A stretch of DNA of 42,177 bases. Source: an uncultured Candidatus Peribacteria bacterium. Its GTDB lineage: Bacteria > Patescibacteriota > Gracilibacteria > Peribacterales > Peribacteraceae. The notes under the pieces were generated by a model. That model was not told the origin of the DNA, did not search any database, and was given only the letters and a program-made list of their open reading frames with translations. Below, in pieces: positions 37,096 through 42,177 of the stretch; positions within the stretch are counted from its first letter, which is position 1, and each line of letters opens with the position of its first letter. Both the position numbers and the translations under genes were made by a program. The stretch lies in assembly GCA_964592265.1 (NCBI GenBank), contig CAZQCB010000001.1, positions 1-42,177 on the forward strand, written 5' to 3'.

Positions 37096-39330
37096 TTACA
37101 ACCCCTTCGCAATGAATTCATCCATCTTCGCAATCATGCCTTCGAGGCTGTGACACTCGGCAACGATGCGGTAGAGCTCGTCGGCATTTGTGCCCTGGAA
37201 ATGCTGAATGAACGCAGCAACGGCTTCAGGGGTATCTTCGTCCGGAGCGGAGAGTAAACCAATTGCCTCAGCGTTCTTTTTCGTCGTCACGGGGTAGCAT
37301 CCACAGGTCATTGCCTCAAGCATCGTCTTATCAATGGTCTCACTGGCCATATTGAGAATGAACCGGTGCTGCGGATAGATCTCCTTCAACTGCTCCATGG
37401 GCACCGTGCCGTGGAAGGTGACGCGGGATTCAAGACCCAAGCTCGAAACGAGCTGCCGAAGCTCTGCGACATAATCCGGTTCCGCTGCGATACCGTAGAT
37501 CACCATCGTATATATCTCCGGAAGAAGTTTGAGCGCTCTCAAACTGATTTCCACACGCTTGCTTCGGGATAATCGGTGCACGACGAGAAGTTCATGTGGA
37601 TTTCCTGTGACACTCGGTCGCTTCTTCCAGAAATCGAGGTCAATGCCATGACCAGTTACAATCTTCTTCGGTGATCCCTCATACTGAGGCAAGCTCTGTG
37701 CAGTCGCACAGAAAAAGCGTTTCCCAAAGAGGCCGAAGAGGAAGACTCCGAGCTGCATCTTGTAGTGCGTGTACCAGAGGTAGACCGGAATGCCTTTGAG
37801 GAGCCACCACCAAAACCCAAGCGTATACCACACGGGAGACATATGGATGAAGACGCGGTCGTATTGGAGGGAGAAAATATATTTGTAGAAGGACAGAATT
37901 TGCCGGATCTTGCCGAATCTGCGTTCCTTTCCCATGGAGAAAACCTGTCGCACGTCACTCCGTGACGTGTGCTGCATGTCGCGGAGCGACATGCGACTAT
38001 TCTCCAGGCAGAGCACCTGAACGGTATATCCCTTCCTCTCAAAAGCCCTTACCCAGAGCTCGACGAACGCATCCTGTGTGTGCATCTTTTGGGTGATGAA
38101 GAGCAATGAAAGTTTCTTCGGAGAGGAAAGATTTTTCAGGAACTCTGCGTATTTCTGCACAGCTTCACCGGGAGCGAAACGGGAGAGGACTTCTTTTCTT
38201 GCACGCTCCCCCATTGCCCTCGTGGAAGAAAAATCACCAAGGAGCACCTGCAATTTCTCTGAAAGATTTTTTGCTGAACCATCCGTGAACTTCACAAGCT
38301 CACCATCCTCCCCAAACTGTGGCATGATCCCCACTCTCGTCGTGACCACGGGCATCCCGAGCGCCATCGCTTCGATGGCGACACGGGGATTCCCTTCACT
38401 TCGGGAATTCACAAGGAAAATTTTCCCTCGCTGCATTTCCCGGTACACGTCACGTTGCTCCGGAAGCCATCCTGCGAATGTCACACGATCATCGATCCCG
38501 AGAGATCTTGCCTTGTCCTCCAGACGTGCTCGTTCTGGCCCATCACCGATGAGAAGGAGTGAAACCCCCTTCAAAGATGAAATAGCCTGGAGTACCTCAA
38601 AAAGCCCTTTATTGGCCGTAAGACGCGCGCAAGCTACAACGTCGTACTCCTCCCTTATGGAGGGGCCTGGCATGAGCGCAGAGGCATCCAGGTAGAGGGA
38701 AGGCACAATCTCGACTTTCGCTTGCGGGATTCCCCACTGCATCAGTTTCTCCTCTACTTCATTATTCACGGTTCGCACCTTGGCGGCAGCCCGCACCGTT
38801 GCTTTGAAAAAAAATGGCCAGTGATACATCCACCGTCCAATGCGTTCCTGTAAAGACGCAGCCGTGGGATATCCCACGATGTGATGTACCTCAACTCCAT
38901 AGGGAGTGCGAGTCACACGATGCAACCACCGCGCACCAATCCCGTTATAAAACGGCGGGTAGTCGTGAACTGTCATCACCCAGTCCGGCATCTTCTTGCT
39001 TTTCAAAAGTTCTTTCCCTTTCTTGAGAATGAAGAAAGGTTGGTACCACAGCCTGTGAGGAGAAGAGTGGAAGAAAACATTCGGCAAATCCGAAATCCGA
39101 AATCCGAAATCCGAAACAAATTCGAAATTCGAATTTCGTGCTTCGTGCTTGTTTCGAATTTCGTGCGGAGCTTGTCCTGAGCCTTGTCGAAGGGTGCTTC
39201 GGATTTCTACTCTTGGGCAGATAATTTCGATTCTCTCAAAATGTTTCGAAAGTTCTTCCAAGGTGTAATAGAAAGCACCCTTCTTGCCGGAAGAGACTGA
39301 TCTGTCGCCGGAAATCATCAGAAGATTCAT
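37096..39330 (-). CDS. two-module GT4 glycosyltransferase fusion
   Basis: 744 aa. Module 1 contains FLVNSRSEGNPRVAIEAMALGMPVVTT. Module 2 contains ILNMASETIDKTMLEAMTCGCYPVTT. ATGA overlap with the upstream gene. Confidence 0.8.
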   Translation of the reverse strand: MNLLMISGDRSVSSGKKGAFYYTLEELSKHFERIEIICPRVEIRSTLRQGSGQAPHEIRNKHEARNSNFEFVSDFGFRISDLPNVFFHSSPHRLWYQPFFILKKGKELLKSKKMPDWVMTVHDYPPFYNGIGARWLHRVTRTPYGVEVHHIVGYPTAASLQERIGRWMYHWPFFFKATVRAAAKVRTVNNEVEEKLMQWGIPQAKVEIVPSLYLDASALMPGPSIREEYDVVACARLTANKGLFEVLQAISSLKGVSLLLIGDGPERARLEDKARSLGIDDRVTFAGWLPEQRDVYREMQRGKIFLVNSRSEGNPRVAIEAMALGMPVVTTRVGIMPQFGEDGELVKFTDGSAKNLSEKLQVLLGDFSSTRAMGERARKEVLSRFAPGEAVQKYAEFLKNLSSPKKLSLLFITQKMHTQDAFVELWVRAFERKGYTVQVLCLENSRMSLRDMQHTSRSDVRQVFSMGKERRFGKIRQILSFYKYIFSLQYDRVFIHMSPVWYTLGFWWWLLKGIPVYLWYTHYKMQLGVFLFGLFGKRFFCATAQSLPQYEGSPKKIVTGHGIDLDFWKKRPSVTGNPHELLVVHRLSRSKRVEISLRALKLLPEIYTMVIYGIAAEPDYVAELRQLVSSLGLESRVTFHGTVPMEQLKEIYPQHRFILNMASETIDKTMLEAMTCGCYPVTTKKNAEAIGLLSAPDEDTPEAVAAFIQHFQGTNADELYRIVAECHSLEGMIAKMDEFIAKGL
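39086..39207. repeat. heptamer-periodic nested-palindrome element (AAATCCG x4 etc.), in-frame in CDS
   Basis: Read directly. There are four perfect heptamers at 39086-39113 and a 16-nt palindrome at 39123-39138. A 12/13 stem pairs 39105-39117 with 39151-39163. TTCGGATTTC at 39198-39207 pairs with the heptamer units. Confidence 0.9.
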
Positions 39331-40502
39331 CGTGTGCGCGAGAGAGTGAGAAATTCTTCCGCAACATCGTTCCAGGTTCGCTTTGGAGGAGGCGAAGCAG
39401 AGGCTGTAGCATACATATCGTATTCTTTCTCTACTTCTTCAATTGCAGCTACGATCTCTTGAACAGTCAAAAGATCACGGAGAATCATTCCTTGAGAAAG
39501 GGCGCTGCTTAAGCCCGTCTCCTTCGTAAGGAGCACAGGGAGACCCGCTGCACGCGCTTCAAGCGCTACATTAGGGCTCATTTCGGTAACGGAAGGGAGA
39601 ACCAGGAGATCGTGCTCCGCGAACACTTCCTGTTTTTCTTCACCGTGCGCCGGGGGGTAGAATGTCACAATGTTCTGCAACTGAAGTTTTGCCACAAGAA
39701 AACGTAAGGAGCTCTCCACAGGTCCCTCACCGACAAAGGTCAGCGTTGCCCTTCCATGGTCATTCTTCAGAGCGACAACAAACGTGAGCAAATTTTTGAA
39801 TCCCACGAACCTCCCCATGAAAAGAAGGCGAAATGGATCGTGCTTCTTATGTTCTTCAGCCTTACGTACCAATTCACTAGTGAATTGGTATATTTGTTCT
39901 GGTAGGGCATTCTCAATCACAGAATGTTTCGGGAGATCCTTGTAATGCTTTTCATAGAGCTTTTCTTGAAACCGTGTAGAAAAGACGATGTGATCGAACG
40001 TACGAAGCATCAATCGCGAAACGAAAAACGAAAAACGAAAAACGAGCGAACGTTCTTCATACCATTCTCTCAAGCTCTTCATTCCCCCTCTATCCGTATA
40101 CCGCTCCCAGAAGAAATCCCCGCCAAGCCGAAGCAGCAGCTTCGGCTTGCCCCGAGCGAAGCCGAGGGGCGAGCACATGCGCCAGAGCATAATCGGCACG
40201 CCACAACTTACCGAGGAGAAAGCAACAATGACATCTGCATCGACCGCATGTTGTTTGAGCGCCTTTGCATACCTCCACCATCGAAGTAGCGGCCCACCCA
40301 ACTTTGCCACATGAATCACGGGCCAATCTTCTTTGGAAATTGGAAATTGGAATTTGGGATTTGGGATTTGGTGCTTCGGCACATACGTCACCACCTTCAC
40401 CTCATTCCCCTTCTTCGTAAATTCCTCCGCAAGTGCCTGCACATAAGTCGCGGGACCGCCAATATCAGGTGGATAGATGCCTGTAGCGAGGACGATCTTC
40501 AT
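39327..40502 (-). CDS. GT4 family glycosyltransferase
   Basis: 391 aa. MKIVLATGIYPPDIGGPATY and LVLPSVTEMSPNVALEARAAGLPVLLT are present. Confidence 0.85.
   Translation of the reverse strand: MKIVLATGIYPPDIGGPATYVQALAEEFTKKGNEVKVVTYVPKHQIPNPKFQFPISKEDWPVIHVAKLGGPLLRWWRYAKALKQHAVDADVIVAFSSVSCGVPIMLWRMCSPLGFARGKPKLLLRLGGDFFWERYTDRGGMKSLREWYEERSLVFRFSFFVSRLMLRTFDHIVFSTRFQEKLYEKHYKDLPKHSVIENALPEQIYQFTSELVRKAEEHKKHDPFRLLFMGRFVGFKNLLTFVVALKNDHGRATLTFVGEGPVESSLRFLVAKLQLQNIVTFYPPAHGEEKQEVFAEHDLLVLPSVTEMSPNVALEARAAGLPVLLTKETGLSSALSQGMILRDLLTVQEIVAAIEEVEKEYDMYATASASPPPKRTWNDVAEEFLTLSRTR
39867..39890. repeat. 24-nt perfect palindrome TACCAATTCACTAGTGAATTGGTA, copy 2
   Basis: Identical to 15195-15218. 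Here it is read in-frame as YQFTSELV inside the GT4 gene. Confidence 0.95.
40017..40049. repeat. heptamer tandem repeat CGAAAAA x3 with degenerate flanks
   Basis: The sequence reads CGAAA CGAAAAA CGAAAAA CGAAAAA CGAGCGA. It encodes RSLVFRFSFFVS on the minus strand. Confidence 0.9.
40122..40151. repeat. GC-rich hairpin (11/12-bp stem, 6-nt loop) inside CDS
   Basis: The sequence reads GCCAAGCCGAAG-cagcag-CTTCGGCTTGCC. Confidence 0.8.
40336..40377. repeat. heptamer array GAAATTG x2, GAATTTG, GGATTTG x2, GTGCTTC
   Basis: Read directly. It follows the same ordered unit series as 39124-39151 and ends in GGTGCTTCGG, as at 39195-39202. It encodes KHQIPNPKFQFPIS. Confidence 0.9.
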
Positions 40503-40534
40503 TGATCAAAATGAATTATATGATATAATATATA
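40502..40534 (+). promoter_or_regulatory. sigma70-like promoter: TTGATC, 16 nt, TGaTATAAT (also TATATA-N6-ATG)
   Basis: The -35 is at 40502-40507 and the extended -10 at 40521-40529. ATG40541 is 11 nt after TATAAT. This is an A+T-rich 38-bp divergent gap. Confidence 0.5.
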
Positions 40535-40540
40535 TCAGAG

Positions 40541-40987
40541 ATGGAGAACGATCTGGACGCCATCATAGAGCAAACAGCATTTGATCCCGCGGATGCGGTA
40601 CGAAAACTGGAGCCGACTCTCTCGCGGATGATAGGCACCCAAGAAGCCGCCTTTCGCTTCTTTCAGCTGACGCAACAGTCTGGGAAGACCCTATGTCTGG
40701 AGGATATAGCCTTCGATCGCATGGTCACCTTCCCAGAGTTTCATGAAGCATGCGCTGAGCAGCACGTAACGACTGCTCGAGAGCAGGCACAAACAAAAGT
40801 GTACATATGCATCATGGCAAAAGAAACACTGTTGCGTGCCATAATGCAAAAGACCGAGAATGTTGACATTTGGAACGAGGCAAATTCTGATACGCTTGAT
40901 GATGCAACACGGGACCGTATTGCCACGCGCTCCAGAGAGTACGAAGAGCGCATTCAAGACCTTCTCACACGAAGGCAAAAGAAGTAG
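40541..40987 (+). CDS. hypothetical protein (148 aa)
   Basis: A clean ORF follows a strong promoter-like sequence. No motif is recognisable. The stop abuts the convergent rmlB stop (TAGTTA). Confidence 0.5.
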   Translation: MENDLDAIIEQTAFDPADAVRKLEPTLSRMIGTQEAAFRFFQLTQQSGKTLCLEDIAFDRMVTFPEFHEACAEQHVTTAREQAQTKVYICIMAKETLLRAIMQKTENVDIWNEANSDTLDDATRDRIATRSREYEERIQDLLTRRQKK

Positions 40988-42004
40988 TTACGCCCGATAC
41001 CACGCGATCGTCTTCTGTAACCCCTCCGTAAAGCTCACCTTCGGACTCCATCCGAGCTTTCGGATCGCAGAGGAATCGAGCGCGTAGCGCCAGTCGTGCC
41101 CTGGGCGGTCCTCCACAAACTTGATGAGGCTCTCCGGCTTTTTCAAGATGTTCAGAATCATTTTTGCAACAGCTATGTTCTCCTTCTCATTGTCAGCAGA
41201 AATATTGAAGAGGTGACCGGAGCCCTTTCTTTGGCTTGCATGCACACCAGGAACATCCGGATCCCAGAACGCCCACTCCGTACGGAGGATGAGTTCCAGC
41301 GCATCGCAGTGATCCGTCACATACAGCCAGTCTCTCTTATTCTTCCCCTCCGCGTAGACGGGAATCGGCTCGTCCTTCAGCGCATGGCGAGTGATTGTGG
41401 GGATAAACTTCTCGAGAGCTTGATGAGGTCCAAAGTTATTCGTGCAACGGCTGATGCATACTTTGATCTTGTACGTCCGCATTGCCGCCATGAGGAGCAT
41501 CTCCGCGGCAGCTTTGCTCGCAGCATAGGGAGAACTCGGCAAAAGAGGATCGCCGACGTTCCGCGGTCGGTCGTCATCGCCGATATCCCCGTAGACTTCG
41601 TCTGTGGAAATATGAAGGAGGCGAACCTGGGGATGTGCCCGACACACCTCGATCAAACTCTGGACCCCGAGAACATTCGTGTGAAGGAACGGAGAAACAT
41701 CTTTGATGCTGTTATCGACGTGCGACTCCGCAGCGAAGTTCACGATGGTATCGATGCCATGTTTTTTCACGAGTTCCGAAACGAGCTCCTGATCCACAAT
41801 ATCGCCTTCCACAAAGGTGATCTTCTTCAAAACGGGGCCGAGGAACGCTTTGTCCGCGGCGTATGTGAGCTTATCGAGGACAACCACGTTATCCTTCGGA
41901 AATTGTGCTTGCCCTGAACCAAACTTGTTCTGGTTCGGGGCGACGTGGCGGAGGACGAAGTGGGAGCCGATGAACCCTGCCCCTCCAGTAACCAAAAGAT
42001 TCAT
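40988..42004 (-). CDS. rfbB: dTDP-glucose 4,6-dehydratase
   Basis: 338 aa from ATG42004 (MNLLVTGGAGFIGSH). AAESHVDNSI, STDEVYG, PYAASKAAAE, NNFGPHQALEKFIP, RDWLYVTDH and DRPGHDWRYALD are present. Confidence 0.9.
   Translation of the reverse strand: MNLLVTGGAGFIGSHFVLRHVAPNQNKFGSGQAQFPKDNVVVLDKLTYAADKAFLGPVLKKITFVEGDIVDQELVSELVKKHGIDTIVNFAAESHVDNSIKDVSPFLHTNVLGVQSLIEVCRAHPQVRLLHISTDEVYGDIGDDDRPRNVGDPLLPSSPYAASKAAAEMLLMAAMRTYKIKVCISRCTNNFGPHQALEKFIPTITRHALKDEPIPVYAEGKNKRDWLYVTDHCDALELILRTEWAFWDPDVPGVHASQRKGSGHLFNISADNEKENIAVAKMILNILKKPESLIKFVEDRPGHDWRYALDSSAIRKLGWSPKVSFTEGLQKTIAWYRA
41894..41936. repeat. possible degenerate copy of the heptamer/GTGCTTG element inside rfbB
   Basis: The sequence reads CTTCGGAAATTGTGCTTGCCCTGAACC, followed by a GAACCA/TGGTTC stem. 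It encodes NKFGSGQAQFPK, which looks like an insert relative to remembered RmlB N-termini. The match is short, so confidence is low. Confidence 0.35.
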
Positions 42005-42010
42005 GGGGCT

Positions 42011-42016
42011 ATGATA
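42011..42016 (-). promoter_or_regulatory. -10-like box TATCAT, 6 nt upstream of rfbB ATG
   Basis: The minus strand reads TATCAT-agcccc-ATG. Confidence 0.35.
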
Positions 42017-42029
42017 GTCCCTGCGAAGA

Positions 42030-42090
42030 GAATTAAGAATCAAGAATTACGAATTAAGGGTCCTAATTCTGAATTCCTAATTCCTACTTC
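42030..42090. promoter_or_regulatory. 4+4 inverted heptamer array (GAATTNN x4, GGGTC, NNAATTC x4)
   Basis: The array reads GAATTAA GAATCAA GAATTAC GAATTAA gggtc CTAATTC TGAATTC CTAATTC CTACTTC. 21 of 28 arm positions are complementary. It sits between the two divergent -10 boxes. Confidence 0.8.
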
Positions 42091-42095
42091 CCCTC

Positions 42096-42101
42096 TATAA
42101 T
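42096..42101 (+). promoter_or_regulatory. consensus -10 TATAAT, 6 nt upstream of ATG42108
   Basis: The sequence reads TATAAT-cctgct-ATG. Confidence 0.45.
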
Positions 42102-42107
42102 CCTGCT

Positions 42108-42177
42108 ATGAAAGGCATCCTCATCTGCGGCGGAAAAGGAACTCGTCTCCTCCCCCTCACAAAGTCGACCCATAAGA
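42108..42177 (+). CDS. sugar-1-phosphate nucleotidyltransferase, 5' end only (RmlA-like by context)
   Basis: MKGILICGGKGTRLLPLTKSTHK carries the GGxGTRLxPLT signature. The gene is divergent from rfbB and is truncated by the window end. Confidence 0.7.
   Translation, partial: MKGILICGGKGTRLLPLTKSTHK

Follow-up and report, generated by a model that had tools for sequence, protein, structure and literature searches.

What is a phased, dyad-symmetric repeat array doing between two divergent promoters, and how may it have come to be there? The question is raised by the far end of a contig from an uncultured Candidatus Peribacteria bacterium (CAZQCB010000001.1), where rmlB and an rmlA-like gene diverge from a short spacer that contains heptamers in two inverted arms. 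The window, i.e. the whole stretch of 42,177 nt that was analysed, is one whole contig of a genome assembly of 0.92 Mb (94 contigs, 54.6% G+C, 80% complete). An earlier, sequence-only reading of this DNA had described the array as four plus four inverted heptamers in a strict 7-nt phase, located over the -35 regions of both genes, and had proposed that it could serve a multimeric regulator as a shared operator or, alternatively, be a cruciform or hairpin element. The parts of the locus are the following.

40988..42004, minus strand: rmlB, encoding a dTDP-glucose 4,6-dehydratase-like protein of 338 aa; its ATG is the reverse complement of 42002-42004.
42011..42016, minus strand: -10 box of rmlB, TATCAT, 6 nt before the ATG (leaderless-type).
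42030..42057, plus strand: left arm, four GAATNNN heptamers (GAATTAA, GAATCAA, GAATTAC, GAATTAA), covering the -35 position of rmlB (42034-39).
42058..42062, no strand: five-base centre, GGGTC, which has no space for an ORF, so that the copy is gene-less.
42063..42090, plus strand: right arm, four NNAATTC heptamers (CTAATTC, TGAATTC, CTAATTC, CTACTTC), covering the -35 position of rmlA (42073-78).
42096..42101, plus strand: -10 box of the rmlA-like gene, TATAAT, 6 nt before the ATG.
42108..42177, plus strand: first 23 codons of the rmlA-like (glucose-1-phosphate thymidylyltransferase-like) gene, with its ATG at 42108.

With respect to anatomy the description holds. Both the sequence itself and Tandem Repeats Finder (TRF) bear out a 4+4 array at 42030-42090 with a 7-nt phase, a symmetry centre at 42060 and 21 complementary positions among the 28 of each arm. 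The heptamers of the right arm are the inverted form of the left-arm unit family, and TRF delimits two period-7 arrays, 42029-42058 and 42061-42091, of 4.3 and 4.4 copies, the units of which are imperfect (82% and 79% matches, respectively). Shuffled A+T-rich sequence, which had been put forward as a control, did not produce anything similar: when the 61-mer was shuffled 200,000 times, the period-7 self-match rose to 25 at most (33/42 in the real sequence) and the arm complementarity to 20 at most (21/28 in the real sequence). The phased GAAT pattern matches five times in the window, against 0.04 matches expected.

The dyad symmetry itself is less specific than it appears. All 24 possible pairings of left with right units yield 21-22 matches, and the true register, with 21, is the minimum; a register-specific pairing of the arms was therefore rejected. 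The 21/28 symmetry follows from the presence of one unit family (with a GAAT core) in two orientations and does not represent a tuned stem. When folded as single-stranded DNA, the rml-spacer hairpin attains -7 kcal/mol (z -1.3), a value that is also reached by 22 out of 200 shuffles. A second round of shuffling, performed on six hairpins with GAATTAR units, gave z -1.7 for the copy in the rml spacer and z -2.5 to -6.5 for the others. A cruciform or stable DNA hairpin was rejected as a strong feature of the locus, given that its -7 kcal/mol is equalled in 11% of the shuffles. The suggestion of a cruciform or hairpin element nevertheless came close to what we found, namely a dispersed selfish element (see below), of which the rml copy is the weakest hairpin among the six. 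Such a weak stem fits a decayed copy of a hairpin element. A scan of 41850-42177 against Rfam gave sub-threshold matches only (the best at 25.7 bits, where the gathering score is 70) and thus no known RNA family.

The TAnnnT-N6-ATG geometry of the promoters on both sides is retained at both rml genes in most relatives, and across this genome TAnnnT shows a strong enrichment 6-9 nt ahead of the start codon, where 301 of 764 called genes have it. A weight matrix of these 301 leaderless-type promoters contains a weak -35 TTG of only 0.06-0.10 bit together with a TG-extended -10 box; the extension (TGnTAnnnT) is found in many relatives and is absent from both -10 boxes here. When placed at a spacing of 17 nt, the -35 hexamers of TATCAT-N6-ATG (rmlB) and TATAAT-N6-ATG (rmlA-like) fall at 42034-39 and 42073-78, i.e. 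within the arms, as the sequence-only reading had it. They match TTGACA at just 3 of 6 positions (TTCTTA; ATTCCT/TTCCTA), and a consensus scan of 41900-42177 identified no sigma-70 -35/-10 pair and no intrinsic terminator. A TTG further upstream, at 42043, was considered as the start of rmlB and rejected, because the alignment with RmlB homologues in relatives begins at residue 1. One may fairly infer from the sequence that both rml genes are transcribed from their ATGs as leaderless messages, in which case the array would sit in untranscribed DNA.

The sequence-only reading had advised searching for the array upstream of other genes in the genome. The phased GAAT search recovered the rml spacer and loci on seven other contigs, which are found beside co-directional genes, inside ORFs and around a PF05635 gene, and which are hence not restricted to promoters:

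C32, C56 and C58: GAATTAR hairpins beside co-directional genes.
C75 and C86: GAATTAR hairpins in the middle of an ORF (of 686 aa and 372 aa, respectively).
C35: solo GAATTAR arm ahead of a start codon.
C10: two inverted GAATTAR arms, 390 nt apart.
C10:15861-16313, outside the window: the PF05635 gene of 134 aa that these two inverted arms (GAATTAG-type) enclose, located exactly between atpD and atpC.

The occurrence of the inverted pair beside co-directional genes and inside ORFs also led us to reject an arrangement of one upstream direct array per divergent gene. Several of the copies have an outer-unit variant, CTACTTC/GAAGTAG, in common, which is encountered in other genera as well; a shared variant of this kind argues for the copying of an element over independent slippage.

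The locus on C10 connects these arrays to a gene family. Its ORF matches PF05635 (23S-rRNA-IVS protein/four-helix bundle, Avd-like) with an E-value of 3.6e-37 and is flanked by arms of GAATTAG (4.4 copies) and ATTCTTA (4.9 copies), the first GAATTAG unit of which supplies, with its TAG, the stop codon of atpD. In total the genome contains ten PF05635 genes, with a mutual identity of just 9-54%, and all ten lie between inverted arrays, which have a period of 7, 8 or 9 and a unit that is particular to each gene. A complete cassette would then consist of two inverted ends, each with some 4.4 tandem units of 7 bases in about 31 nt, that enclose a small PF05635 gene. In four of the ten (on C40, C71, C44 and C57) the arm units measure 8 or 9 nt, for instance GTTCTAGAG, AAGTGTGA, GGTTTGCT and ATTGTCAT, which implies that the periodic-arm design is not tied to 7 nt. 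The association extends beyond this genome, as an inverted periodic pair of about 16-53 nt was present around the PF05635 gene in 30 out of 30 sampled loci of the family, 29 of which are from other genera.

Comparison of the orthologues of the C10 protein (54-84% identity) shows how the arms evolve. They are of the GAAT-, GTAT-, GTAC- or CGAA-type, and both arms of each orthologous cassette carry the same change (e.g. GAAT:ATTC versus GTAT:ATAC); arm pairing is thus maintained in gene-bearing copies while the units drift. In a tree of 15 C10-type proteins the arm types cluster, with only one well-supported fork. The junction between atpD and atpC is occupied in two other genera, namely in G070 (84% identity, GAATTAR arms) and in G074 (61%, GTAT-type arms). 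This cassette lineage is repeatedly found at another junction, too: most C10-type orthologues of other genera (L126-L129, L131-L137) lie directly upstream of a DinB/Pol IV-like gene (MIxHIDADAFFAS...) and have as their upstream neighbour a gene that ends in ...RKY. At L128 (in G053) the DinB-like ORF contains ...ILNSRFQILDSQF..., which looks like a heptamer array translated in frame within a translesion polymerase gene.

Cassettes with a gene are the minority, gene-less hairpins, in which there is just a short loop, being approximately tenfold more numerous in this genome, which also encodes RNase III. Among 124 strong ORF-less period-7 arrays, the consensus was identical to the 7-mer of a cassette arm in 45 cases and within one mismatch of it in 92, against 4 exact matches and 45 within one mismatch for a control of letter-shuffled units. 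The rml array combines the unit family and the arm length of the C10 cassette with a centre of 5 nt, and this makes it a gene-less copy. By its unit family, arm length and inverted layout it belongs to a dispersed element family of which the complete members carry PF05635. The explanation that we consider probable is that the array in the rml spacer is a gene-less, partly decayed hairpin cassette of the IVS type (PF05635) that resides in untranscribed promoter DNA. No remnant of a PF05635 gene was detectable at the rml array, with its 5-nt loop, nor in the 64-nt loop of the copy on C56, for which the best protein alignment scored 37, within the shuffle range of 31-47. Likewise, no target-site duplication was visible at the flanks of the six GAATTAR copies, and a search of the genome for Y1 transposases returned a single marginal and partial Y1_Tnp match (on C77, 25.5 bits).

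To place the copies in context we took a census of periodic arrays, for which genes were called with a purpose-made, simple ORF caller. TRF reports 242 period-7 arrays, 130 of which have a score of at least 40 (0-1 in three shuffles that preserve local composition), next to 55 arrays of period 8 (0 in shuffles) and 64 of period 9 (0-2 in shuffles). The unit families are many and include CGAANNN, CCAANNN, GAATTAR, AGGTTTY, ATTGRAA, GTAAGGG and AGCGRTC. The lengths of the period-7 arrays show a sharp peak at 31-32 nt, which comprises 66 of the 242 (45 are exactly 31 nt long) and is not as open-ended slippage would give. The preferred length corresponds to about three helical turns, or to 4.4 units. 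Arrays occupy 22% of the tandem, 24% of the convergent and 19% of the divergent spacers of at least 60 nt; the similar occupancy across spacer types indicates that promoter-bearing DNA is not preferred. Furthermore, 71 period-7 arrays lie well within long ORFs, and many of these are in frame.

The window (42 kb) contains five strong period-7 arrays, all of them within its last 3.1 kb (39086-42091), in two GT4 genes and in the rml spacer. Their density there is about ten times that of the genome as a whole, and the surface-glycan genes look like a local hot spot. The arrays inside the GT4 genes had been taken to consist of the same unit type as the rml array. This is true at the level of the superfamily only, since the GT4 arrays are made of CGAANNN/CCAANNN units and are tied to other cassettes. 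The presumed link to a 24-nt palindrome (39867-39890) was not substantiated either: the palindrome is non-periodic and we found no evidence of relatedness.

How could two promoters accommodate such an element? According to the cassette reading it would have been inserted or copied between the two -10 boxes, the sole place in the spacer where extra DNA keeps the fixed distance from -10 box to ATG. The rml promoters appear to depend mainly on their -10 boxes and would therefore tolerate the replacement of all DNA upstream of these. Being presumably not transcribed, the rml copy could not act as an RNA stem, a role that would be open to arms within an operon. It would probably influence rml expression only through the provision of A+T-rich upstream DNA and the spacing of the promoters. 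The presence of a copy in apparently untranscribed DNA suggests at the same time that the element spreads at the DNA level and that the RNA stem is not needed for this.

Of the 19 genera of the same family with a good RmlB match, 17 have the divergent rmlB/rmlA pair, and the spacer between the two genes measures 45-183 nt. The sequence-only reading had made its interpretation depend on conservation in relatives with the same divergent gene pair; the sequence is not kept in these 17 other genera, and what recurs is the occupancy. An array with a TRF score of at least 38 is found in 7 of the 17 orthologous spacers (four clear inverted pairs, and two more that are pair-like by eye), and the units all differ: CAGCTTT, ATTGAAA, CCTAAAA, AAGTTCC, CATACTC, GAATACTG and CTACTAT. 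Three further occupied rml spacers with again other units, one of them a CGAANNN hairpin, were encountered on metagenome contigs. We found no relatives from the same genus, the nearest RmlB having 76% identity among the genomes and 72% among the metagenome contigs. The occupancy of 7/17 exceeds the 15-19% of divergent spacers occupied in the present genome (binomial P about 0.01-0.03; Fisher exact 0.018), a base rate that stems from one genome and from arbitrary thresholds. The excess is suggestive only, and it may mean that the rmlB/rmlA spacer is a favoured or an unusually tolerant landing site, or that arrays are retained there.

A first alternative is that the element, although of selfish origin, has been exapted and now serves the two rml promoters as DNA, either by offering weak TTC-type -35 hexamers and A+T-rich, UP-like DNA to both or by spacing and insulating two promoters that would otherwise overlap. 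The layout is compatible with such a role: each arm overlies one promoter at its -35 position and the other at -40 to -60, the array has about 30% G+C in a genome of 54.6%, both -10 boxes lack the TG extension that is common in relatives, and exaptation would explain why the orthologous spacers are occupied recurrently and above the base rate. Nevertheless, the -35 signal is nearly absent genome-wide, and the hexamers in the arms are, as described, poor matches that do not form a -35/-10 pair by consensus scan. In addition, the genus G012 copes with an array-free rml spacer of 45 nt that consists essentially of the two -10 boxes, and no clear array is present in six of the orthologous spacers. 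The units of the relatives include G+C-richer ones, so that there is no shared sequence property, and the array centre (42060) is offset by 4 nt from the promoter midpoint (42056). On balance we regard exaptation as unlikely.

A second alternative does without cassettes altogether: the array could be a local simple-sequence repeat that arose by in-place replication slippage of A+T-rich heptamers, independently of PF05635, in which case the number of units might vary between cells and switch surface-glycan genes as a contingency locus does. In many bacteria no class of long simple-sequence repeats is commoner than tandem heptanucleotides (Mrazek et al. 2007, in the account given by PMC4679880), and the neighbouring glycosyltransferase genes carry arrays too. 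The GAATTAR unit is, moreover, widespread. Within the family, 43 of 61 genera have a phased pattern of three GAATTNN units; the number of matches ranges from 0 to 178 per genome, and the reversed control is near zero in most. Exact GAATTAR arrays of 3.7 units were found in at least 120 genome stretches and in 59 viral contigs, in a search of 596 billion bases for which the chance expectation is, by our own estimate, well below one match. The genomes concerned belong to Cyanobacteria, Bacteroidota, Spirochaetota, Verrucomicrobiota, Chloroflexota, Firmicutes, Acidobacteriota and Patescibacteria. In the other phyla, most of these exact arrays are solo direct arrays, often located between a stop codon and the next start. 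As a rough figure, from local alignment on the downstream side of the arm only, an inverted partner lies within 150 nt downstream of 15 of the 120 exact arrays and further away in 7, as compared to 7/120 in the reversed-sequence control. The solo direct arrays imply that not every heptamer array is the arm of a cassette. Pure GAATTAA/GAATTAT arrays of 10-20 units were seen in a Treponema MAG and in viral contigs (L157, L276, L302), where those of the present genome have about 4.4 units.

For the rml spacer, however, slippage is disfavoured by the imperfect units, and also by the array lengths in the genome, which show the peak described above and no decay with length. The inverted pairing, the shared CTACTTC/GAAGTAG variant and the unit family and length of a cassette arm all point to the copying of a defined element instead, and we therefore attach little credence to a local simple-sequence origin.

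A more daring proposal, and a long shot, is that the heptamer arms are recognition arrays for a toroidal pentamer of the four-helix-bundle protein that the cassette itself encodes, the roughly five unit cores of an arm corresponding to the five subunits. The protein of the atp-operon cassette would in that case bind the GAATTAR copy in the rml spacer. If this were true, the 'multimeric regulator' would be the protein of the selfish element itself, and the expression of surface-sugar genes would be tied to that element. The arm type tracks the phylogeny of the protein, but this is equally expected from simple co-inheritance.

The weakest of the alternatives is the dedicated shared operator that the sequence-only reading offered as one of its two options, at which a multimeric regulator would bind the phased heptamers and co-regulate rmlB and rmlA: it has the phased repeats, the dyad and the overlap with both -35 regions in its favour and is nonetheless very improbable, as the units differ in all 17 orthologous spacers (sequence conserved in 0/17), the same arms occur in non-promoter DNA, the dyad has no register-specific complementarity and no regulator gene adjoins the pair.

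If the array is a decayed cassette, with which known systems should it be compared? REP/BIME sequences with their RAYT transposases, and MITEs, are dispersed, short inverted-repeat elements of intergenic DNA that far outnumber the autonomous copies. The present arms differ from these in that they are periodic arrays and not a single palindrome, and in that no target-site duplication is evident. The Rickettsia palindromic elements (RPE), reportedly described by Ogata et al. in 2000, are said to measure 100-150 bp and not to consist of tandem heptamers, and we know of no gene-bearing full-length form. Like the element described here, they are short, palindromic and selfish repeats that are tolerated both between genes and in frame within protein genes. 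The STRR repeats of cyanobacteria, which Mazel et al. reportedly described in 1990, are said to be tandem 7-nt units that are abundant and mostly intergenic, and the GAATTAR unit of the present genome occurs in cyanobacteria as well as in many other phyla.

The same description applies to the heptanucleotide LSSRs of Mrazek et al. 2007, as portrayed in PMC4679880, which share with the present arrays the tandem 7-nt units, the abundance and the mostly intergenic location. In contrast to both LSSRs and STRRs, the arrays reported here have a preferred, fixed length, come in inverted pairs, comprise several unit families per genome, each of which matches the arms of some gene-bearing cassette. The TAACTGA repeats of marine Beggiatoaceae (PMC4679880) resemble them in that heptamers lie near the start codons of many unrelated genes; they occur in cyanobacteria and Bacteroidetes too, and are suspected of having spread horizontally (PMC4679880). 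They consist, however, of a single unit that is almost only direct and located in 5' leaders, and a post-transcriptional regulator has been proposed for them (PMC4679880), whereas the arms here are inverted, are located upstream of a leaderless start and belong to many unit families.

The closest parallel is provided by the intervening sequences (IVSs) of 23S and 16S rRNA genes in e.g. Coxiella burnetii, Leptospira and Salmonella (PMC4990558). Like the cassettes, these are selfish and sporadic and have complementary ends that form a long stem; they similarly hold an optional small S23p/PF05635 ORF and exist in short, ORF-less forms (PMC4990558). The complete copies in the present genome have exactly the design of an IVS. 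The difference lies in the location, as IVSs have been described within rRNA genes, from the transcripts of which RNase III removes them, whereas the rml copy resides between the promoters of two protein genes, in apparently untranscribed DNA, and has heptamer arms of about 31 nt. A classical rRNA intervening sequence was rejected as an identity for the rml array, since it is found between rmlB and rmlA, outside rRNA, and has the design in common only.

Parts of this picture have been noticed separately. PF05635 genes have been reported from rRNA insertions of CPR bacteria (PMC11270868) and from a position between cas genes (PMC3936711). Both the bacterial excess of heptanucleotide repeats and the TAACTGA repeats of Beggiatoaceae have been described, neither of them being connected to a gene (PMC4679880). 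The only repeats mentioned in a study of five Peribacteria genomes are a single direct repeat region and some short ones at the origin (PMC4736985). In full-text literature searches we found no paper that joins heptamer arrays to PF05635 cassettes. The present genome links three observations, i.e. that all its PF05635 genes lie inside hairpins with arms of about 31 nt made of tandem 7-9-nt units, that gene-less hairpins of the same units outnumber them about tenfold, and that these have landed in promoters, between the genes of operons and, in frame, within ORFs. It thereby connects three things that have long lacked an explanation: the ORF-bearing IVSs of rRNA, the orphan family of '23S rRNA IVS protein'/Avd-like proteins and the excess of heptanucleotide repeats in bacteria. 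At a more practical level, the rml case, being one of more than 100 copies, warns against inferring a regulatory site from a phased-repeat dyad at a divergent promoter.

A last observation concerns the end of the window. Its final 55 nt (42123-42177) recur without a mismatch at the start of C27 (reverse strand), the contig on which rmlA continues, so that the two contigs join inside rmlA; the assembly break is located 32-86 nt beyond the array and may reflect a branch of the assembly graph at this position.
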